Notes: generated by a model from the sequence alone, not told the origin. Positions 34,091 through 48,378 are shown, numbered from the stretch's first letter. The stretch: DNA of 64,000 nt from Botryllus schlosseri (GCA_051294905.1 CM119371.1:17796001-17860000); one strand, 5' to 3'. Program-made: numbers and translations.

Positions 34091-34689
34091 AATCAATTTA
34101 ATACTTGCACATTTCAACTTATCAGAAGCAAAACTATCTGTGATGCATTTTTCAATCATTTCCAGTTCAGAGGACTTTCTTCACGGTTCGATCGTGTTTA
34201 TTGAACCTTATTGTTGTCAGAACTACATTCATTGCAGAAGAATGCCACAACTGGAAGACTTTTGTGTGTCCCTGAACTAGCATGACGTAAACCGAGTTAT
34301 CTAAAACATAACCGATCAAGTATGACAACACAACGGTGCACTGTTGTACAGTGCGACACGAGATTATACTTCATTTATGATATTCTAAAAGTCTTGGCTC
34401 AAAAGCATAATAATCACGGTGTCATTGGCTAAAATATAGATTCGTCAAAATCAGGACACATCTGAGATGTCAGAGCAATCTAGTTTTATCAGACATCGCC
34501 CTTCAAAATAAGAAACAAATCTAATAGCCCTGGCTATATAATATAATCATTGGTTTCAAGTAAACTAAATGGTATCGTTACCAGTGCAAAATGTTAAACA
34601 AATTCAGCGAGATCAACCGAAATTTAAAAACAACTTAGTCTAGTAGCCTACGTCGTCATGTGAGCGTATGGGGCCTGGCTGCCCATCCA

Positions 34690-34931
34690 ATAAGTCGCTG
34701 CTGAAGAGATTCGGCGTCCTAAACATATAAGATATGCGGAAACTAGAAATCGCCAAGTTTATGTATCAGTTTCACTGCGGTCGTTGCCCCGAATATTTCA
34801 ATGACTTCTTTACCTCTGAATCAAAAGCGCACAAGTACAACACACGCGCGTCCACGTCGTCCAAATATCATATGATCGACCGAAAAGATCATCGCTCCAT
34901 CAAATATGCCGGACCTGATGTGTGGAACAGT
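34690..34931 (+). mobile_element. CR1/L2-type LINE 3' fragment, left part (split by the Polinton-like insertion)
   Basis: Encodes KLEIAKFMYQFHCG..RSIKYAGPDVWNS. It resumes at 48022 (NSIPPAIRQSTSMSTFKSKYKQ), colinear with the copy at 10215-10805. Confidence 0.85.
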
Positions 34932-34984
34932 AGTAGTATATATGATCGGTCGCGAACTAACGTTTTTTTGCATGGGGTAGTATA

Positions 34985-35753
34985 GGCGGGGTGGTGAGCG
35001 GCTGGGAAAGCGGGGGTGGTGAGCGGCTCTTATTTCTTATGGCGGGGGCGGTGAGCGGCTATTGCGTCTTATGGCGGGGGTGGTGAGCGGCTCTTATTTC
35101 TTATGGCGGGGTCGTGAGCGGCTGGAAAACCAGGGGTGGTGAGCGGCTTTTATGTCTTATGGCGGGGGTCGTGAGCGGCTATTACGTCTTATGGGCGGGG
35201 TGGCGATTCGCCTTTTTTGCTATAGGCCGCGGTCGTGATTCGCCGTGAAAACCCGGGGTGGTGACTCGCCTTTTTTCTATAGGCGGCGGCGGCGATTCAC
35301 CTATCGTGTATTCTTACGGGTTCTGTGGTGATTCGCCATGTGTTCTTATGGGCGCGGTCGTGATTCGCACTTTCAGACATCTCTCGCGTGGTGTTGAATA
35401 GTCACCAACAATAACCGCACAAACGGAAACGTGGTTTGTTGTGAGGATTAAGCAGTGCGACCTATATTTCGAATGACCTGCGCGCTGAATTGTTTCACAG
35501 CCAACCGCGGTGGTCGTGACTCGCCTTTTTTACTATAGGTGGTGACGGTGATTCGCCTGTCGTGTATTCTTACGGGATCTGTGGTGACTCGCCATGTGTT
35601 CTTATGGACGCGGTCGCATGCGGCTATTGCGTCTTATGGCGGGGGTGGTGAGCGGCTATTGATGCTAACACGAAACCCGGGGTGGCGAGCGGCACTTATT
35701 TCTTATGGCGGCGGGTCTTATTTCTTATGGGTGCGGTCGTGATTCGTACTTTC
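34985..35753. repeat. GC-rich subterminal tandem repeats (left end)
   Basis: Degenerate ~25-31-bp units built on GGCGGGGTGGTGAGCGGCT / GTGATTCGCC / TCTTATGG. Mirrored at 47585-48005. Confidence 0.85.
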
Positions 35754-36843
35754 GGTATAGACTGCGGGCGGCATGTCGTACTTTCAGCAAAAAAGGTGTG
35801 AAATAGTTTGCCAAGTCTAGGAATCACTTCCAAGGTAATATTTTGGTATTTAGTTTACCGCAGAGCCGGCGTAGACGGCGATTCGAATATCAACAATAAC
35901 AACGCTCACGAATTAACACTTCAAATAGCTGTGAAATAGTTTGCAAAACCCCGCGATCGCTGACAAGATAATGTCTCGGTCATAACCATCTTTCACGACT
36001 TGGTGTCATAACCATACCGATCGCTCACGCGGTGAAATTTTAGTAATCAGTTTGTCACAGAACTTGATATCGCTGGTAAGATTTAACAAGTAACGAATAA
36101 CAGACCGCGGTAACTTGAATAGCGACAAATTGTCACTTATTTCCGCTCCAACCCTAATCCTTTGTGAAGTGAACGCTTATTCAAAAGGGTGTGATATAAT
36201 TTTAAAATCCAACGACCACTCACCGGATAATACTTCAGACATGGCAATTCCCTCATACCCGCCCACAAGGTAATATTTCGGTAATTAGTTTGTCACAGAA
36301 CCGTCGCAGGTGGTGATTGGAAAACCGACAATTTGTCACGCGCCCGCGATCGCTATATGTTTCACGCCTCCAGAATAGTGTCTGACTTTAGTTGCGTGAT
36401 AAGATCCATGAAAATATTCAATCAATGTGTTAGTTTATCAACTTGAAATGAAACTCACTACACAAATCAAGTCGATTCGTATCTGAATGTTTTAAATCGG
36501 TACAACTCTAATCCTTTGACAAATCCCTTAACGCGTTTTTGTTGAATCGAACGTAACCCGAATATTACTGACGCCGACTTTCAGCCGCATCGAATTATTC
36601 GCACATTCCGCGCCACTGTTTTCACACTTATAGAATCGTTACCAACTATAACTCTACAAGAATCAAGAATCACAAGTGTGTGCATTACACAGTTATTGTC
36701 TTTATTAACTTGACATCAAACACTTAACAAAAACACGCAACTACTCATTTGGCAACTCTAGCATTACCAAAAAATTCCAGTATTGTTGATTGAAAATCCT
36801 TGAGTCATTATTATCAAAAATGTTATAGTACCGCATCGGGATC

Positions 36844-36960
36844 CATTCGCGGGATGTACTAAAGGTAAATCCAAATAATCCACATTCGCGGGATGTACTA
36901 AAGGTAAATCCAAATAATCCACATTCGCGGGATGTACTAAAGGTAAATCCAAATAATCCA
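36844..36960. repeat. 3 x 39-bp perfect tandem repeat
   Basis: Unit CATTCGCGGGATGTACTAAAGGTAAATCCAAATAATCCA; mirrored at 46378-46494. Confidence 0.92.
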
Positions 36961-39844
36961 GAATGAAATATTTGGACTTTGACATAGTGTGAATTGAAAT
37001 AGGATTGACAAACACGACTACCAACTTTGATCCAGCCACATTTCAAGATCATACTTTGAAACAAGTAATGTAACATTACAACTCTATTCCCGATCCCGCT
37101 TTCCATTTGTCAAAGAGATATTTTAACATCTTACCATACTCAGAAGAATTATTCACGACATTAACAATTGTTAAAAATCTAGTTTTCACTTACTTGATTA
37201 TATCACTGCAACTCATAAATTTGAATTAATTCATCCTGGTTGTATTCGTATGCTCGGTCTTTTTTATTCAATTGTAAAGGTTGTTACTATTCTGAAGACA
37301 AAGTATTTACTAATCGGTGCATATACGATTTGACTTGGACATATTATATTTTGAGTATACGAGATTTGAATGTCTGAACAATAACTGAGAAATAATTTAT
37401 CACAATTATATCCGTAATATTACAGCGTAAAAGATATTGGAATGTCAGCAACTCTGTAAGGTCATAGTTACTACCACTAATTTACCCGACCAACTCGTCA
37501 TGATCATTCCTGAAATCAACACAAACGTGACCACTGACTTGAGTTAACCACAAAACAGCATCAAGTTTTAAATCCACTTGTAGCTTACGACTTATTTGAA
37601 TGCGGGTTATGTTTTGTTGTAATTGAGTGTACGGAAATAGTATTACGTCTCGACATATCACCATGTCGGAATTTGTGACAGAGAATTGAAACATATGCAC
37701 TTTACAGAGTGTGAAAATATCACTTTGAGTATCGAGTACCGTTCGAAGCTAGCGATCAATTCTTAATCATTTCAGTAACTCCCCATTGTGTGTGCTAAAT
37801 GAAAAATATCGCGAGGTTATACACTCTAAGACTTTGATCATTACAAAAGTAAATTGTGATATGTTTGTTAGATGCATCCAATTCAACTAGAAGTGTCTAG
37901 TGCCCAACACTCGTAATATCAAAAAAGTACTTGCTACACTGTTATTTGCTACGTGTTATGCATTGTTGTTCATTTGTAGTATTGAATGAAATTGTTCTTG
38001 AACCCTCAAATAATAATTCCCGACATGAAACCAAGCCACTGAAAGTCGTTACCATCACGAAGATACAATGTGTACGATGTTTGTCAAATGTGTCCTACCT
38101 GGCCAACAGAAAACAATTTTCACTAGCTTGGTAATGAAACCGAAGTCTCCATTCGATATATTATTTGCGTCAAATACTTTACAACGAACACATTTGCGTG
38201 GTTGAGCTTTACATCATCAGACTGTCATCTGTACATCAAGAATACACCCGACTTGTAACTGGATCGTTTACCTAACCGAGTTGTATGCACAGTTTGATAT
38301 TTTTGTCATTTAGTGATTGCTGAACATACCACTTCGAAATACTGCGTTGATCTTAATTTCCATCATCGTGATAAGTGAAGTACATTTGTTTTGAATTTAT
38401 AACAATAGGCTTTTCTACGACATGATAAATTATTGACAAGTTCTGCTTAGAAGATTGGTTGCATATCACGAAAAATAATATACCACACATATTATTACTG
38501 TTACTCCATTCATCGGTATTTTTTCCGTTGTCGATTTTCAAACGAGTAAAATTTATTACTTGAGTTGCTCTGCTTAATGTAAATGTAAACTCACCCGTCT
38601 TTCAACAACAAACAATGTTAAAAAAGTATGCAATCAAACACAACAAGTTTTACGATACTAATTATTATCCCACATAACCCATTTCTTACCGAAGACATAT
38701 GAAATATATTCATGTTACACGAAAATATTCGCTCATGCTACAAACCTGTACAATGATTGGTGGTGCTTTCAAACTGTTTCGATACCTCAAAAACTTTATT
38801 GTCTGAACGGTTGTTCATGTATCGTAATAATCAAGTAGTTCAACATAAAACTAGTATTAACAGAAACACCAGAGTTGTTTACACAAAAGTTTGTGTGTGT
38901 ACAGTATACGAATACCATTTGTAAATCCAGCACAATTGTGGTATCCATACGAGTTTAGTTAACGCAATTTACGACACCGAGGTCGCGTCATCTTTCGTAA
39001 GACAACAAACCAAGGCTCCAGGATATGTCCATGTCATAGCAATAAATCAGCTACTCCAACAACAGAGTGCATATGTTTCTAGTTACGGCGCTTACATCTT
39101 ACACACAAATCAATCTACTTTGCTAACGAAAAGTGGTGAGTCATCATATGGTTGTCCTCACAACTAAAACATACTATCATACAAAATGGTCGTTATAGTT
39201 TGCACACCAACGGTACATCGTACAAGTAACAAGTCTCGAGAATACAGTTATTCAAAAAACGTGAAAGTATTTCTACACCAAGTCGTTATGTTGACGAAAG
39301 CGTATATTGTAATATCATGATCGATTTGCATTCGTTGGTCACAAACTGTCACTACTCTAAATAATTCTTTTTCACTCAAACACAAACGCATACTTGTCAC
39401 CATTCGTTTTCATCAAGCACGAGTTCAAGAAACTTACTTACTACGATATGAATTTTTATTTTTATGTTGTGTAAATAGGTAATAATTAATTCAAGTAACA
39501 CTATATCAACATCATCGAGTTGTGCTAATAGATTTACATGTGATCTTGTGGTTTTCGTCGGGACATACAGCACGAACTAACTGTAGACTCCTCTCTGTTG
39601 TACAGCTACTCGGTAATCGAAATGCATTAACATGTAAACAACGATCTTGTTTCGTCACACCAAAAATATGTTCACTGTCGCGATACTCCGCACAAGACGT
39701 GCATAGCCTTTTCACACTCGTAATAGTATACCAACGTCAAGCGATAACGTTTAACAACACCGACGACACTAAACCCACGACGTTTACCTATGTCAAATTA
39801 CCACTTTCACTTGTCAGTCCATCGTTTACCTGACTAAACATATT

Positions 39845-40445
39845 ATTTTCCTTTGGAGATCTGACGTTTACCCAGAGTAAGAAACCATTTTCACTTGTAA
39901 ATATTTTTTTTCCTCGGCTAACAAACCTTTTTTCACTTGGAAATATATTTTTTCTCTGGGTAACAAACCTTTTTCACTTGGAAATATATTTTTTCTCTGG
40001 TTAACAAACCTTTTTCACTTGGAAATATATTTTTTCTCTGGTTAACAAACCTTTTTCACTTGGAAATATATTTTTTCTCTGGGCAACAAATCTTTTTCAC
40101 TTGGAAATATTTTTTTTCCCCGGGTAACAAACCTTTTTCCCTGAGCAACAAACCATTTTCACTTGGTGGTCCGTCGTTTACCCGAGTAAAAATATCATTT
40201 TCTTTTGGAGATCAGGCGTTTACCCCGTGTAACAATACATTTTCACTTGGAAAAATACTTTTACCTAGAGTAACTAATCATTTTCTCCTGGGTAACAAAC
40301 CCTTTTCCCTTGGAAATATATTTTTTCCCTGGGTACTAAACCATTTTCGTTTGGAAATATATTTTTTTCCCTGAGTAACAACGCCATTTTCTCTTGGAGA
40401 TGTGATGTTTACCTAAGTAAAAATATCATTTTCGTTTTGAAATCT
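39845..40445. repeat. ~41-bp minisatellite array (~14 degenerate units)
   Basis: Core unit TTTTCACTTGGAAATATATTTTTTCTCTGGTTAACAAACCT; mirrored at ~42893-43493. Confidence 0.88.
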
Positions 40446-41230
40446 GACAACCACACGCATCAATTTGGTATTTGTTGTATTGGCGACAGTTTGAAATTGA
40501 TTACAACGAACAGTGACGAAAATATAAACCGACAACCGGTTTCAGAGTATACCCGCATCGATCGCATCGCATCTATATCATCGGTTAACCACATGAAATA
40601 ACAGCATACCATTGGATATCGAAATGTATGTTTTGGAAATCGACGGATATTGTATGTCCTGGTGTGTGTGTGTCTGTGTGTGTGTCCGGGTTCGTGCTTT
40701 AGATTTTCCAGAGTCAAAATGTCTGAATAAAACACCTCCTCGACTTTGGTAGCTGGTTGATACACGGATAATGGTGTTCGGAAAACGAATGAATTTATGT
40801 TCCCCATGGCGCTAACAACTCCGGGTTACTTGTGAGTTTCCTCAGGTTTGTTTACTATATTGTGTCTTTACTGATCAATACATGTCGCTCCAGTCAGCTG
40901 AAACCGGATCACTAATACGAGAAAGTGTGTGGGGGCCTGATCTGGATATTCACTCATGAACCAACGACCAATATTCAAGTAAACATGGTACAGACAGTGT
41001 TTTGTCTCCATGAAAAATACCAACCATCACATACAAGTAACGTCGCGATTGTTCACAAGTATTCGCGTAAACGAGGTGTACATACAATGTGTCGGTGTAC
41101 AAACATCATGGAAAACAGATTCATGTTCTCAAGTATCATCATGCGACGACTCTGTACATTCAATGTGGGCATAGATGACACACGACATGATACAATGAAC
41201 AGTGCATTATGCATACCGATATATTCTCAG

Positions 41231-41506
41231 TCAAATATGCGAACCGTGTACTATCACGCATCCCGATTTTCGCTGAATATCCACAACACCAACAAATCTG
41301 TACATTTCTTTTCCCTCAACCTTGACGATAGAGTTGTCCTCCCAATGTACCAATCGAGTGTATGGTTCATCAGGTGTAAAATCCAAATCAAATGTCACCA
41401 AGGTATCGTTTTTCATTTTTAATATTTCCACTGCTGCATCTTGTCTGTGTCGTAAAACCACGGTGTGGGGCCAGAGGAATCTATGGATAGTTACGCGTAG
41501 TCCCAT
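41231..41506 (-). CDS. Hypothetical 91-aa protein in the palindrome spacer
   Basis: ATG-initiated ORF with protein-like composition (..DTLVTFDLDFTPDEPYTRLVHWEDNSIVKVEGKEMYRFVGVVDI..). No family recognised. Confidence 0.3.
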   Translation of the reverse strand: MGLRVTIHRFLWPHTVVLRHRQDAAVEILKMKNDTLVTFDLDFTPDEPYTRLVHWEDNSIVKVEGKEMYRFVGVVDIQRKSGCVIVHGSHI

Positions 41507-42158
41507 ATTTACTCGTGGATATGGCTAGGTAACGACGACGTTTTCTCAGTGGTCTGCGTGAGTGAACTGTTTCAATACGTAGCTGGATCAACTAGACCAA
41601 AAGTTTCCAACCACGTTTTATAACGACATGTAGAATTACGAGTCAGCGCCCTCTTGCGGAGTGGTTAACATGAAATCAGTCTTCAACCGCAGAGACACAC
41701 CTTGGATTACATTATCTAATCGTAATCGAACTCGAGATTCACACACACACACACAGAGTCCCTGTTTACGATTTCAATCCGGAGTCACTGCTCACGATGT
41801 TTATCTGTAGTCGTTATGTGGGAGTAGCGACATCTGACATATTCATCGCGTGAAAGATTGATAACGATGGTGATCGCCAAATACATTACACCGGGTGAAA
41901 CACTGCGGCCTCAGCAAAAAAGTTCGCAGGTTAGGACGAACAATACGTGGAGGGATTGAGCGAGTTACGCAACCCGATTATGTCGAAGTCTGTATCACGA
42001 TACAAGTCTACTTGAGAATCCGAACAATCTTACAAAATCAAGCTGTGAACCCGTGAAAGGGCTGTACTCGTGTGAGATTCATTTTTCACAAGTTGGGTGG
42101 AGGTCGGTTCATACTGAGACCGTGTTACGTCCAAATATGGCTGCTTGTCTGTCTCCAA

Positions 42159-45100
42159 GTCATCTATACCCACATTGAATGTACAGAGTCGTCGCATGAT
42201 GATACTTGAGAACATGAATCTGTTTTCCATGATGTTTGTACACCGACACATTGTATGTACACCTCGTTTACGCGAATACTTGTGAACAATCGCGACGTTA
42301 CTTGTATGTGATGGTTGGTATTTTTCATGGAGACAAAACACTGTCTGTACCATGTTTACTTGAATATTGGTCGTTGGTTCATGAGTGAATATCCAGATCA
42401 GGCCCCCACACACTTTCTCGTATTAGTGATCCGGTTTCAGCTGACTGGAGCGACATGTATTGATCAGTAAAGACACAATATAGTAAACAAACCTGAGGAA
42501 ACTCACAAGTAACCCGGAGTTGTTAGCGCCATGGGGAACATAAATTCATCCGTTTTCCGAACACCATTATCCGTGTATCAACCAGCTACCAAAGTCGAGG
42601 AGGTGTTTTATTCAGACATTTTGACTCTGGAAAATCTAAAGCACGAACCCGGACACACACACAGACACACACACACCAGGACATACAATATCCGTCGATT
42701 TCCAAAACATACATTTCGATATCCAATGGTATGCTGTTATTTCATGTGGTTAACCGATGATATAGATGCGATGCGATCGATGCGGGTATACTCTGAAACC
42801 GGTTGTCGGTTTATATTTTCGTCACTGTTCGTTGTAATCAATTTCAAACTGTCGCCAATACAACAAATACCAAATTGATGCGTGTGGTTGTCAGATTTCA
42901 AAACGAAAATGATATTTTTACTTAGGTAAACATCACATCTCCAAGAGAAAATGGCGTTGTTACTCAGGGAAAAAAATATATTTCCAAACGAAAATGGTTT
43001 AGTACCCAGGGAAAAAATATATTTCCAAGGGAAAAGGGTTTGTTACCCAGGAGAAAATGATTAGTTACTCTAGGTAAAAGTATTTTTCCAAGTGAAAATG
43101 TATTGTTACACGGGGTAAACGCCTGATCTCCAAAAGAAAATGATATTTTTACTCGGGTAAACGACGGACCACCAAGTGAAAATGGTTTGTTGCTCAGGGA
43201 AAAAGGTTTGTTACCCGGGGAAAAAAAATATTTCCAAGTGAAAAAGATTTGTTGCCCAGAGAAAAAATATATTTCCAAGTGAAAAAGGTTTGTTAACCAG
43301 AGAAAAAATATATTTCCAAGTGAAAAAGGTTTGTTAACCAGAGAAAAAATATATTTCCAAGTGAAAAAGGTTTGTTACCCAGAGAAAAAATATATTTCCA
43401 AGTGAAAAAAGGTTTGTTAGCCGAGGAAAAAAAATATTTACAAGTGAAAATGGTTTCTTACTCTGGGTAAACGTCAGATCTCCAAAGGAAAATAATATGT
43501 TTAGTCAGGTAAACGATGGACTGACAAGTGAAAGTGGTAATTTGACATAGGTAAACGTCGTGGGTTTAGTGTCGTCGGTGTTGTTAAACGTTATCGCTTG
43601 ACGTTGGTATACTATTACGAGTGTGAAAAGGCTATGCACATCTTGTGCGGAGTATCGCGACAGTGAACATATTTTTGGTGTGACGAAACAAGATCGTTGT
43701 TTACATGTTAATGCATTTCGATTACCGAGTAGCTGTACAACAGAGAGGAGTCTACAGTTAGTTCGTGCTGTATGTCCCGACGAAAACCACAAGATCACAT
43801 GTAAATCTATTAGCACAACTCGATGATGTTGATATAGTGTTACTTGAATTAATTATTACCTATTTACACAACATAAAAATAAAAATTCATATCGTAGTAA
43901 GTAAGTTTCTTGAACTCGTGCTTGATGAAAACGAATGGTGACAAGTATGCGTTTGTGTTTGAGTGAAAAAGAATTATTTAGAGTAGTGACAGTTTGTGAC
44001 CAACGAATGCAAATCGATCATGATATTACAATATACGCTTTCGTCAACATAACGACTTGGTGTAGAAATACTTTCACGTTTTTTGAATAACTGTATTCTC
44101 GAGACTTGTTACTTGTACGATGTACCGTTGGTGTGCAAACTATAACGACCATTTTGTATGATAGTATGTTTTAGTTGTGAGGACAACCATATGATGACTC
44201 ACCACTTTTCGTTAGCAAAGTAGATTGATTTGTGTGTAAGATGTAAGCGCCGTAACTAGAAACATATGCACTCTGTTGTTGGAGTAGCTGATTTATTGCT
44301 ATGACATGGACATATCCTGGAGCCTTGGTTTGTTGTCTTACGAAAGATGACGCGACCTCGGTGTCGTAAATTGCGTTAACTAAACTCGTATGGATACCAC
44401 AATTGTGCTGGATTTACAAATGGTATTCGTATACTGTACACACACAAACTTTTGTGTAAACAACTCTGGTGTTTCTGTTAATACTAGTTTTATGTTGAAC
44501 TACTTGATTATTACGATACATGAACAACCGTTCAGACAATAAAGTTCTTGAGGTATCGAAACAGTTTGAAAGCACCACCAATCATTGTACAGGTTTGTAG
44601 CATGAGCGAATATTTTCGTGTAACATGAATATATTTCATATGTCTTCGGTAAGAAATGGGTTATGTGGGATAATAATTAGTATCGTAAAACTTGTTGTGT
44701 TTGATTGCATACTTTTTTAACATTGTTTGTTGTTGAAAGACGGGTGAGTTTACATTTACATTAAGCAGAGCAACTCAAGTAATAAATTTTACTCGTTTGA
44801 AAATCGACAACGGAAAAAATACCGATGAATGGAGTAACAGTAATAATATGTGTGGTATATTATTTTTCGTGATATGCAACCAATCTTCTAAGCAGAACTT
44901 GTCAATAATTTATCATGTCGTAGAAAAGCCTATTGTTATAAATTCAAAACAAATGTACTTCACTTATCACGATGATGGAAATTAAGATCAACGCAGTATT
45001 TCGAAGTGGTATGTTCAGCAATCACTAAATGACAAAAATATCAAACTGTGCATACAACTCGGTTAGGTAAACGATCCAGTTACAAGTCGGGTGTATTCTT

Positions 45101-47792
45101 GATGTACAGATGACAGTCTGATGATGTAAAGCTCAACCACGCAAATGTGTTCGTTGTAAAGTATTTGACGCAAATAATATATCGAATGGAGACTTCGGTT
45201 TCATTACCAAGCTAGTGAAAATTGTTTTCTGTTGGCAAGGTAGGACACATTTGACAAACATCGTACACATTGTATCTTCGTGATGGTAACGACTTTCAGT
45301 GGCTTGGTTTCATGTCGGGAATTATTATTTGAGGGTTCAAGAACAATTTCATTCAATACTACAAATGAACAACAATGCATAACACGTAGCAAATAACAGT
45401 GTAGCAAGTACTTTTTTGATATTACGAGTGTTGGGCACTAGACACTTCTAGTTGAATTGGATGCATCTAACAAACATATCACAATTTACTTTTGTAATGA
45501 TCAAAGTCTTAGAGTGTATAACCTCGCGATATTTTTCATTTAGCACACACAATGGGGAGTTACTGAAATGATTAAGAATTGATCGCTAGCTTCGAACGGT
45601 ACTCGATACTCAAAGTGATATTTTCACACTCTGTAAAGTGCATATGTTTCAATTCTCTGTCACAAATTCCGACATGGTGATATGTCGAGACGTAATACTA
45701 TTTCCGTACACTCAATTACAACAAAACATAACCCGCATTCAAATAAGCCGTAAGCTACAAGTGGATTTAAAACTTGATGCTGTTTTGTGGTTAACTCAAG
45801 TCAGTGGTCACGTTTGTGTTGATTTCAGGAATGATCATGACGAGTTGGTCGGGTAAATTAGTGGTAGTAACTATGACCTTACAGAGTTGCTGACATTCCA
45901 ATATCTTTTACGCTGTAATATTACGGATATAATTGTGATAAATTATTTCTCAGTTATTGTTCAGACATTCAAATCTCGTATACTCAAAATATAATATGTC
46001 CAAGTCAAATCGTATATGCACCGATTAGTAAATACTTTGTCTTCAGAATAGTAACAACCTTTACAATTGAATAAAAAAGACCGAGCATACGAATACAACC
46101 AGGATGAATTAATTCAAATTTATGAGTTGCAGTGATATAATCAAGTAAGTGAAAACTAGATTTTTAACAATTGTTAATGTCGTGAATAATTCTTCTGAGT
46201 ATGGTAAGATGTTAAAATATCTCTTTGACAAATGGAAAGCGGGATCGGGAATAGAGTTGTAATGTTACATTACTTGTTTCAAAGTATGATCTTGAAATGT
46301 GGCTGGATCAAAGTTGGTAGTCGTGTTTGTCAATCCTATTTCAATTCACACTATGTCAAAGTCCAAATATTTCATTCTGGATTATTTGGATTTACCTTTA
46401 GTACATCCCGCGAATGTGGATTATTTGGATTTACCTTTAGTACATCCCGCGAATGTGGATTATTTGGATTTACCTTTAGTACATCCCGCGAATGGATCCC
46501 GATGCGGTACTATAACATTTTTGATAATAATGACTCAAGGATTTTCAATCAACAATACTGGAATTTTTTGGTAATGCTAGAGTTGCCAAATGAGTAGTTG
46601 CGTGTTTTTGTTAAGTGTTTGATGTCAAGTTAATAAAGACAATAACTGTGTAATGCACATACTTGTGATTCTTGATTCTTGTAGAGTTATAGTTGGTAAC
46701 GATTCTATAAGTGTGAAAACAGTGGCGCGGAATGTGCGAATAATTCGATGCGGCTGAAAGTCGGCGTCAGTAATATTCGGGTTACGTTCGATTCAACAAA
46801 AACGCGTTAAGGGATTTGTCAAAGGATTAGAGTTGTACCGATTTAAAACATTCAGATACGAATCGACTTGATTTGTGTAGTGAGTTTCATTTCAAGTTGA
46901 TAAACTAACACATTGATTGAATATTTTCATGGATCTTATCACGCAACTAAAGTCAGCCACTATTCTGGAGGCGTGAAACATATAGCGATCGCGGGCGCGT
47001 GACAAATTGTCGGTTTTCCAATCACCACCTGCGACGGTTCTGTGACAAACTAATTACCGAAATATTACCTTGTGGGCGGGTATGAGGGAATTGCCATGTC
47101 TGAAGTATTATCCGGTGAGTGGTCGTTGGATTTTAAAATTATATCACACCCTTTTGAATAAGCGTTCACTTCACAAAGGATTAGGGTTGGAGCGGAAATA
47201 AGTGACAATTTGTCGCTATTCAAGTTACCGCGGTCTGTTATTCGTTACTTGTTAAATCTTACCAGCGATATCAAGTTCTGTGACAAACTGATTACTAAAA
47301 TTTCACCGCGTGAGCGATCGGTATGGTTATGACACCAAGTCGTGAAAGATGGTTATGACCGAGACATTATCTTGTCAGCGATCGCGGGGTTTTGCAAACT
47401 ATTTCACAGCTATTTGAAGTGTTAATTCGTGAGCGTTGTTATTGTTGATATTCGAATCGCCGTCTACGCCGGCTCTGCGGTAAACTAAATACCAAAATAT
47501 TACCTTGGAAGTGATTCCTAGACTTGGCAAACTATTTCACACCTTTTTTGCTGAAAGTACGACATGCCGCCCGCAGTCTATACCGAAAGTACGAATCACG
47601 ACCGCACCCATAAGAAATAAGACCCGCCGCCATAAGAAATAAGTGCCGCTCGCCACCCCGGGTTTCGTGTTAGCATCAATAGCCGCTCACCACCCCCGCC
47701 ATAAGACGCAATAGCCGCATGCGACCGCGTCCATAAGAACACATGGCGAGTCACCACAGATCCCGTAAGAATACACGACAGGCGAATCACCG
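42159..47792. repeat. Right arm of giant inverted repeat
   Basis: Reverse complement of 35546-41179. The inner match ends at 41179/42159. Confidence 0.97.
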
Positions 47793-48021
47793 CCACCGCC
47801 TATAGCAAAAAAGGCGAGTCACCACCCCGGGTTTTCAGGCACCTCACCGCCGCAGCCTATACCCGAAAAGGCGAATCACGACCGCACCCATAAGAACACA
47901 TGGCGAATCGCGGCCCAGAGGGGGGTCTAAAAAGGCGAATCGCCACCCCGGGTTTCCAGGCGAATCGCCACCCCGCCCATAAGAACCCCATAGCCGCTCA
48001 CGACCGATCGACTATACTACT

Positions 48022-48378
48022 AACAGTATCCCGCCGGCCATTCGACAGTCGACGAGCATGTCCACATTCAAGTCGAAATACAAGCAATTACTACTAAATA
48101 AATACAGTCCATCCTCAAGATTACCGGACCACGACTGACCTATCGATCTCGCTTCCCATGGCATGCCGCCCTATTTCTTGTCGCATTCTTTTTCTATACT
48201 ATCTTCTTTACTTTCATTCAGTGTGCATGCCTCCTCTTTACATCGCCTAGGCCAAGGTGGGTGTCATATTCCATAGACTACTCCTTGTCGCTTCGACATC
48301 TTCCTGTCTTTTCATTGTATCGCATTTTTGTGGTGTATTGAACTGATAAAAATTGCTAATAAACCAATGATGATGATA
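48022..48378 (+). mobile_element. CR1/L2-type LINE 3' fragment, right part with 3'UTR and (ATG)n tail
   Basis: Continues 34690-34931 and ends AATAAACCAATGATGATGAT. Aligns to the reverse complement of 10215-10567. Confidence 0.85.

Follow-up and report, generated by a model that had tools for sequence, protein, structure and literature searches.

A large palindromic element family in the genome of Botryllus schlosseri, probably derived from Maverick/Polinton virus-like transposons

Mavericks, also known as Polintons, are thought to be viruses living as transposons, although direct observations of how they replicate, are packaged and become mobilised are scarce. At their very ends they bear a short tandem repeat, 5'-(AGT)2...(ACT)2-3' or (AG)3...(CT)3, on which jumping-back during protein priming relies. 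For vertebrate Mavericks, the parts of the survey by Barreat & Katzourakis 2021 (PMC8097293) drawn on here describe (AGT)2//(ACT)2 ends, with the (AGT)2 ends serving jumping-back, a perfect 6-bp target-site duplication (TSD), terminal inverted repeats (TIRs) of 46-1,447 bp (mean 402), a constrained size of about 17 kb and a median of eight copies per genome. Here we analyze a stretch of 64,000 nucleotides from Botryllus schlosseri (the window; C1:17796001-17860000 of GCA_051294905.1 CM119371.1, an assembly of 495.5 Mb in 219 contigs), which harbors at positions 34932-48021 a 13,090-bp element opening with AGTAGT and closing with ACTACT. Our evaluation indicates that this element is very probably a non-autonomous derivative of the Maverick/Polinton virus-like transposons, belonging to a satellite-like lineage that would be mobilised in trans.

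With autonomous Mavericks, as characterized in the consulted parts of PMC8097293, the element shares the terminal (AGT)2...(ACT)2 motif, the 6-bp TSD, the terminal inverted repeats and a size within the 12-25-kb range. A preliminary description of the locus had already named the 6-bp TSD and the AG-starting termini of short repeats as Maverick hallmarks, in agreement with this source. Unlike Mavericks, the element contains no genes for PolB, integrase or capsid, carrying instead a 91-aa gene (hereafter ORF91; ORF, open reading frame) that PolB-bearing elements lack at the scored places. It furthermore differs from the vertebrate representatives, again as far as the same source portrays them, in the length of its inverted repeats, which are arms of 5,668 nt here and of 4.0-6.8 kb in other copies versus TIRs of 46-1,447 bp, and in the abundance of its family, hundreds to roughly a thousand copies versus a median of eight.

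Two further groups of gene-reduced linear replicons are informative for comparison. Helper-dependent adenovirus genomes shorter than ~75% of the wild-type length rearrange, and a 15-kb vector was packaged as direct and inverted dimers, according to the excerpted sections of PMC4189039. By analogy with these vectors, the Botryllus element may be regarded as a gene-stripped, protein-primed linear replicon that has kept its ends, would need a helper and could have added length by inverted duplication. Whereas the adenovirus case is a laboratory and episomal one, the lineage described here is germline-integrated, diversified and ancient, possesses a gene of its own and is known from sequence alone. 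Transpovirons and Tlr1-like elements, in the passages of PMC5499653 considered here, are linear and TIR-bounded, being thought to be derivatives of polinton-like viruses minus the morphogenesis module that need the machinery of another virus. The element resembles them in its TIR-bounded, gene-reduced form and presumed dependence; in contrast to their helicase/polymerase-derived gene with other ORFs, their size of ~7 kb and their association with protist giant viruses, it combines one 91-aa orphan gene with a palindromic build in an animal-like genome. The literature searched, with Repbase and Dfam lying outside this search, contained no palindromic or non-autonomous Maverick derivatives and no Maverick-specific satellite gene.

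The limits of the insertion could be defined to the base. Reading of both ends showed that the left end AGTAGTATATATGATCGGTCG and the reverse-complemented right end AGTAGTATAGTCGATCGGTCG are identical at 18 of 21 bases, and that the 6-bp TSD AACAGT is present on the left (34926..34931) as well as on the right (48022..48027); both had been reported in the preliminary description and hold. In addition, the left flank (with the TSD at its end) and the right flank (with the TSD at its start) were queried separately genome-wide. In this and all following genome searches, 40-150 of up to 2,800 candidates were scored, all counts being lower bounds. In three uninterrupted paralogues of the target repeat, 99-100% identical, the two flank matches adjoin each other with an overlap of exactly 6 bp (C7, 6759977-6760238 with 6760233-6760511; C6, 26972018-26972279 with 26972274-26972552; C1, 4983704-4983965 with 4983960-4984238). 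Therefore, the 13,090 bp represent a single, precise insertion that duplicated 6 bp. When the insert and one TSD copy are removed, the target repeat regains a continuous ORF. The target itself (window 34650-34931 and 48022-48300) is the 3' part of a very young and very abundant retrotransposon-like repeat, its flanks yielding 1,778 (left) and 974 (right) first-look candidates, with the other 39 scored places each 99-100% identical. Eleven right-flank matches spaced ~1.9-2.2 kb apart at C1:18712493-18743032 resemble a tandem array.

Almost the whole element is built as a palindrome. An inverted-repeat search returned a left arm (35512..41179, plus strand) and a right arm being its reverse complement (42159..47826, minus strand), each of 5,668 nt, which differ by 12 mismatches only (99.8% identical), four of them within the outermost 34 nt, and which enclose a single-copy central loop of 979 nt (41180..42158). 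The length of the inverted repeat, previously given as several hundred bp, was understated, the supposed TIRs being ~6-kb arms of a giant palindrome. The arm shows no Pfam match and no conserved unique ORF. It contains a 39-nt tandem repeat in three copies (36844..36960, plus strand; mirrored at 46378-46494) and, near its inner end, arrays of a ~41-nt tandem repeat (39877..40398, plus strand; mirrored at 42940-43461), the latter being also found in L049, a PolB-bearing element introduced below. ORF91, comprising 91 codons and stop, occupies 41231..41506 of the loop on the minus strand.

Outside the arms, the two ends belong to different types. The left terminal region (34932..35511, plus strand), unmirrored at the right end, consists of the (AGT)2 motif, GC-rich ~32-nt repeats and a 140-nt unique stretch. 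Its subterminal array has a 32-nt/120-nt period at 34985-35203, with more units until about 35368. The layout of 34981-36300 is contiguous in L037, L038, L043 and L007 at 86-90% identity and represents a normal end type of the family. The right terminal region (47827..48021, minus strand, 195 nt, ending ACTACT) was assigned to another end type by end reads and genome matches; including the arm junction it is contiguous at 95-96% in other elements, e.g., at both ends of a pair on C25. Two different end types are thus combined with a perfect TSD and clean empty sites, from which it follows that the chimera predates integration. The GC content amounts to 0.518 (35001-36000) and 0.485 (47001-48000) versus 0.34-0.43 in the element interior, and this raised terminal GC together with the subterminal ~32-nt repeats agrees with the GC-rich repeats previously noticed at each end. 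For the arm interior, sister copies with 99-100% identity exist, e.g., on contig 6, whereas the best genome matches of the window copy's ends reach at most 90% over full length and at most 96% over part, at either end. Consequently, the subterminal arrays turn over much faster than the interior.

Genes of autonomous Mavericks were searched for at several levels. Within 34932-42300, a Pfam scan of 70 stop-to-stop ORFs with a minimum length of 45 aa returned zero significant matches, with sub-threshold noise only, and tblastn of the family's own PolB pieces and capsid-like ORFs against the element returned nothing. Likewise, the proteins of the sampled autonomous-element pieces had no match in the element, showing no gene remnants. 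Protein-primed PolB was accordingly found neither by the Pfam scan of the 70 ORFs nor by tblastn with the family PolB; for the rve integrase there was no Pfam match, and none of 150 scored integrase places falls into C1:17830932-17844021; major and minor capsid, packaging ATPase and maturation protease genes were detected neither by the Pfam scan of the ORFs nor by tblastn. The absence of any Polinton-type ORF, as first stated from reading the stretch, is thereby borne out. Rfam and tRNA scans of the element yielded none, and the arm resembles neither L051 nor any other part of the window. A conserved-ORF scan over the arms and loops of eight copies recovered, besides ORF91, only frames arising from the 39- and 41-nt tandem repeats. 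In view of this gene content, the element can be placed among the Mavericks/Polintons as a non-autonomous derivative only.

Extension of the analysis to the entire genome revealed a large family. With the terminal 469 nt as query, many contigs showed matches in plus/minus pairs spaced by 9-18 kb, and the end pattern AGTAGTNNNNNNGATCGNTC occurs at 1156 forward and 1143 reverse sites genome-wide (2,299) versus 6 and 14 for the reversed control. The size survey, limited to the 100 termini heading the list (all from contig 1, between 0.1 and 23.5 Mb), comprised 40 pairs and 20 solo ends; pair length was 12.5-15.5 kb in 22 cases and 16-21.5 kb in 8, the remaining pairs being either shorter (4) or longer or nested (6). 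TSDs read by script from 12 terminus pairs were identical 6-bp flanks in 11 cases and matched at 5/6 positions in the remaining one, so that copies with different 6-bp TSDs, which the preliminary description had proposed to look for, do exist. Among ten other copies examined, eight are palindromic with arms of 4.0-6.8 kb at 98.8-100% identity, and two copies carry an insertion in one arm only. The non-palindromic cases are L049, with TIRs of 1.86 kb, and L043/L044. The latter (also L012/L023) was first read as an 18-kb copy and was dropped since its end motifs and flanks differ, revealing two elements.

Comparison of the loops and arms depicts a diversified but structurally conserved family. 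Seven out of nine loops align end to end, falling into two types: type 1 is represented by L033, L037, L039, L045 and L047 (85-92% identical) and type 2 by the window copy and L035 (92.8% identical), with only ~250 nt at ~75% identity being common to both. Arms are 68-94% alike between copies, forming a mosaic of segments, versus 98.8-100% within a copy. Most of the ~1,150 terminus pairs belong to the palindromic family, corresponding to hundreds to about a thousand copies. Its share of the genome is estimated at roughly 2% (~55% of ~1,150 elements x ~13.8 kb). Possible signs of recent activity are a target repeat up to 100% like its paralogues, the 12 differences per 5,668 nt of arm and the sister copies at 99-100%.

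Several observations on individual copies and target sites stand beside these data. At TSD positions 3-4, 23 distinct termini showed CG 13 times, CA 7 times, TG twice and GG once; the TSD centre is thus pyrimidine-purine in 22 and position 4 a purine in all 23, and central CG looks strongly enriched given a genome of ~40% GC. Terminus pairs at C1:16768420-16810257 are nested, with 14.7 kb within 28.7 kb within 41.8 kb, and the palindromic copy L047 (L047:3-162) is inserted into the capsid-like gene of another Maverick. The copies L031/L032, with a much shortened loop of 332 nt, and L041/L042, with a loop of 4,411 nt, are palindromic and devoid of ORF91; the loop of L041/L042 holds single-copy arm-like sequence, as after partial deletion of one arm.

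ORF91 (41506-41234, minus strand, running from a conserved Met to a conserved stop) encodes 91 aa of ~10.6 kDa and coincides with the ~250 nt common to both loop types. It is open in all eight copies with ~0.9-1.0-kb loops, the other five frames of this block being open in none of them. The ratio of nonsynonymous to synonymous divergence (dN/dS) is 0.20-0.33 between the loop types, with dS about 1, and 0.17 between the window copy and L035, while differences within the block are distributed over the three codon positions as 28.5, 14.5 and 39.1. On genome level, the type-2 protein found 1,201 candidate places; identity was 89% or higher throughout the 150 scored ones, 145 of which are stop-free; the type-1 protein found 1,197 candidates, with 148 out of 150 scored ones having no stop. 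Taken both types together, 293 of the 300 genomic copies scored have an intact ORF91. This pattern of substitutions and intact frames shows the signature of purifying selection on ORF91, which presumably benefits the element's own propagation.

On contig 1, ORF91 is located roughly midway between the two termini of pairs 12.9-14.5 kb long, and the 300 scored ORF91 places are all more than 11 kb away from each of 106 PolB places. Nine PolB-ORF91 place pairs were found at most 25 kb apart, eight of them at 14.7-24 kb and one at 11.7 kb, which suggests that palindromic and autonomous elements are often adjacent in the genome. Outside the Botryllus schlosseri genome, only three relatives were found, of 91 aa each and 69-91% identity, and public assemblies contain two 91-aa relatives at 69-74%. 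A search for longer homologues returned none, and profile searches of Pfam, Atlas and PDB gave no usable match. In a search of 1.84 billion representatives, which otherwise returned only the protein's own family, a WD40-repeat match appeared; it was rejected as spurious because its score sums weak repeat matches, the best domain reaching 10.6 bits. The ORF91 profile found nothing among the PolBs and six-frame ORFs of the sampled autonomous pieces, and an AlphaFold model was unusable at a mean predicted local distance difference test (pLDDT) score of 37.3. Upstream, a TATA-like motif is present in the window copy only (one of eight), and downstream, a polyA signal at ~445-470 nt occurs in six type-1 copies only; in neither case is a conserved signal claimed.

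A connection to Mavericks is provided by elements of the same genome that share these ends and encode PolB and integrase. With the PolB of L049 as query, 262 candidates yielded 106 genome places, whose open frames extend to as much as 1,306 aa; three of these places, all on contig 1, are enclosed by paired AGTAGT termini 17.3, 18.3 and 20.9 kb apart. For the 18.3-kb element both ends were read, revealing the TSD GCCGAG and a TIR of ~0.6-0.8 kb, composed of 443 nt with 99.5% and 196 nt with 96% identity. For the integrase, the rve-bearing part of the database relative P0084, with residues located by Pfam, served as query, and 150 places were scored. For 84 of the 106 PolB places, an integrase place, mostly a 359-aa open frame, was detected no farther than 6 kb away (median 3.2 kb), and PolB and integrase are co-located in all three contig-1 elements as well as in an element on contig 118, whose subterminal/TIR sequence is 82.7% identical to that of the window over 537 nt. 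A common end motif and a 6-bp TSD therefore bound both the palindromic copies and the PolB/integrase elements. The preliminary description had named a different transposase class between the same termini as the finding that would speak against a Polinton; what these termini flank are PolB and rve integrase, and no other transposase class was encountered.

A genome search with PF00665 had proven useless for the Maverick integrase, its 150 matches being mainly long retrotransposon-type frames, and the protein query was substituted for it. Of the 150 integrase-like places, 66 are unaccompanied by PolB at a distance of up to 6 kb; among these is the group with the highest scores, made up of 339-aa open frames at 45-47% identity to the query, which may represent a further class of integrase-bearing elements or a Maverick lineage whose PolB has diverged. 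Regarding morphogenesis genes, a 432-aa ORF of the contig-118 element (99% identical to one in L050) has as nearest Atlas clusters those with PF21738, a double-jelly-roll-like domain, in 14-30% of their members, a weak lead that this ORF may be capsid-like. Pfam and PHROGs found nothing on the ORFs of L050, an autonomous-element end.

L049 (C5:20946700-20956483), whose ends and TSD are those of the family, is the sole link between PolB and the arm interior among the sampled sequences. It is an 8.8-kb deletion derivative with 1.86-kb TIRs at 98.65% identity and the TSD AACGTA, in which PolB is present in four separate open pieces of 169, 147, 389 and 216 aa beside arm-like repeat sequence. The 389-aa ORF matches PF03175 (protein-primed PolB) at E=1.9e-5 and 24.2 bits and has 99 longer homologues of 700-1,800 aa (best E=8.5e-113), many of them precomputed as PF03175, with the named ones coming from marine invertebrates. 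In the outer ~1.7 kb of the arm (window 34969-36656), identity with the L049 TIR reaches up to 91%; window 36922-40835 is colinear, with gaps, to L049 7489-5792, which is the side away from PolB; and window 39779-40536, containing the ~41-nt arrays, matches L049 6558-6068. In respect to the interior, the preliminary description had assumed unrecognised cargo; the content does not appear to be captured host DNA but rather an inverted duplication of a Maverick end together with the 91-aa gene.

On this basis, an origin of the family can be proposed in which ~7 kb of the non-PolB end of a Maverick would have been duplicated in inverted orientation by a single ancient event. The likeliest route would be a strand switch of the protein-primed polymerase onto its own product, generating a snap-back (copy-back) defective genome, with the loop being the stretch left between the break and rejoin points. 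A genome of this kind would have as its arms two inverted copies of a single parental end, joined by a short unique loop. The arm-loop-arm build is observed, and the arm is colinear with the non-PolB side of L049, a partial relative, whereas no full-length parent with the entire arm interior and ORF91 was among the sequences sampled. PolB and integrase from the more than 100 autonomous copies would replicate the resulting copies, starting at their two identical origins, and integrate them. The earlier proposal of a non-autonomous or defective Polinton moved in trans is supported as to the Maverick derivation, for which the ends and TSD shared with PolB- and integrase-bearing elements argue; as to the mobilisation, those shared ends together with the missing genes suggest a supply in trans. 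Finally, the length of 12.5-15.5 kb, about two-thirds to three-quarters of that of the 17-21-kb helpers, suggests a constraint on length by packaging or replication, reminiscent of the ~75% threshold of adenovirus genomes.

A number of points weigh against this derivation or parts of it. That the palindromic family is mobilised in trans is something we infer from the sequences, and an inverted dimer followed by deletion, or an ancestral inverted duplication in the chromosome, would yield the identical structure. Because ~4 kb of the arm interior found no match in the 8 kb sampled from one autonomous element, the Maverick origin of this interior depends on L049, which could itself be a recombinant. 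Its PF03175 match of 24.2 bits lies under the curated cut-off of 25.8, and the PF03175 family search of the genome gave zero matches, a result that is uninformative since the control also matched nowhere, the model being too distant. The capsid assignment in the partner elements is a lead for which Pfam gave no match. Co-residence of ORF91 and PolB is possible in copies beyond the 300 scored. RNA reads over ORF91 are very few, with 10 of 12.9 million bulk reads (all partial) and 9 and 23 single-cell reads, each of 22.2 million, on 41080-42258, numbers at which neither expression nor silence can be called.

The arms are ~99-100% identical within a copy versus 6-30% divergence between copies. 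Two routes could account for this. In the hairpin route, a displaced single strand would fold into a 6-kb hairpin, in which mismatches would be repaired in each cycle; alternatively, arm-to-arm gene conversion would take place in the chromosome. Gene conversion between palindrome arms is well known, and it is a possible, though not the favored, explanation that the copies are Maverick derivatives whose arm identity stems exclusively from such conversion after insertion, with no role of replication and no packaging constraint. The arms being far more alike within than between copies is what this explanation would produce as well. Against it stand the decayed arms of some copies (98.8% in L037/L038; 98.65% in the L049 TIRs), values of 98.7-98.8% suggesting that identity is set at insertion and then decays, as well as the narrow length that is kept despite 6-30% divergence and segment turnover; neither argument is decisive.

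Taking the Maverick derivation further, the family could be a satellite-like parasite of endogenous Maverick viruses, a tentative reading to which we assign a rather low likelihood. In this case, a self-annealed 6-kb hairpin would be copied by the protein-primed polymerase of the helper, one arm being re-copied or repaired from the other, and packaging into helper capsids would hold the length at about two-thirds to three-quarters of that of the helper. The satellite would outnumber its helpers several-fold, and ORF91 would hijack or interfere with the helper, possibly via the ~41-nt or the GC-rich repeat arrays.

The other explanations fare considerably worse. As the sole conserved gene, under purifying selection and present in nearly every copy, ORF91 might itself mobilise an autonomous family as a new, very small transposase or recruiter. 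We consider this quite improbable: the protein has 91 aa without detectable nuclease, integrase or polymerase similarity in Pfam, Atlas, PDB and the search of 1.84 billion representatives, and the ends and TSD are those of the Maverick integrase and PolB.

Foldback (FB) elements of Drosophila have a 9-bp TSD. A cut-and-paste transposon of the Foldback type (Drosophila FB or Galileo of the P superfamily), being Maverick-like at its tips only, would also have long arms with internal tandem repeats and hardly any coding capacity, and Galileo, in the sections of PMC3573991 referred to here, shares with the element very long repetitive TIRs, mostly non-coding copies, among which the non-autonomous ones have the longest TIRs, and known copies with chimeric ends. 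According to the same source, Galileo TSDs measure 7 bp, its TIRs do not exceed ~1.25 kb and its partner transposase is of the P type, whereas the present family has 6-bp TSDs (11 of the 12 pairs), arms of ~6 kb and Maverick partners; Galileo chimeras moreover show mismatched flanks there, in contrast to the perfect TSD and empty sites of the chimeric window copy. Its ends correspond to the (AGT)2 motif as published for Mavericks (in the cited part of PMC8097293), the identical motif bounds PolB- and integrase-bearing elements of the same genome, and the subterminal 537 nt are 82.7% identical to a PolB-bearing element. Neither a TSD of 7-9 bp nor a P/MULE-type transposase was found, the TSDs having 6 bp and the full-length members carrying PolB and integrase, and a Foldback origin is hence very unlikely. 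Least credible of all is an assembly artefact in which a long-read foldback chimera mimics a palindrome around a real insertion of ~7 kb, since, although arms at 99.8% identity would fit and near-perfect inverted duplications are a known class of such artefacts, eight other loci on different contigs show the same build with different sequences and TSDs and arm identities of 98.8-100%, two copies carry an insertion in one arm only, the arms of the window copy differ at 12 sites and its two ends in type, plus/minus termini lie 12.5-15.5 kb apart in 22 of 40 pairs, and ORF91 is central in such terminus pairs.

With regard to the biology of Mavericks, a lineage that lost all known Maverick genes and yet attained hundreds up to about a thousand young copies would delimit the cis parts sufficient for propagation, namely the terminal (AGT)2 motifs, the subterminal repeats and possibly the arrays inside the arms. 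The palindromic build and the narrow length are signatures expected of protein-primed replication and capsid packaging, making both testable in a natural system. ORF91, as a conserved orphan specific to the parasite lineage, is a candidate handle on a conflict between helper and parasite inside a genome. The palindromic family is moreover of a kind that homology-based annotation of transposable elements would overlook. If the satellite reading proved true, the family would represent a type of entity so far undescribed for the Maverick virus group.

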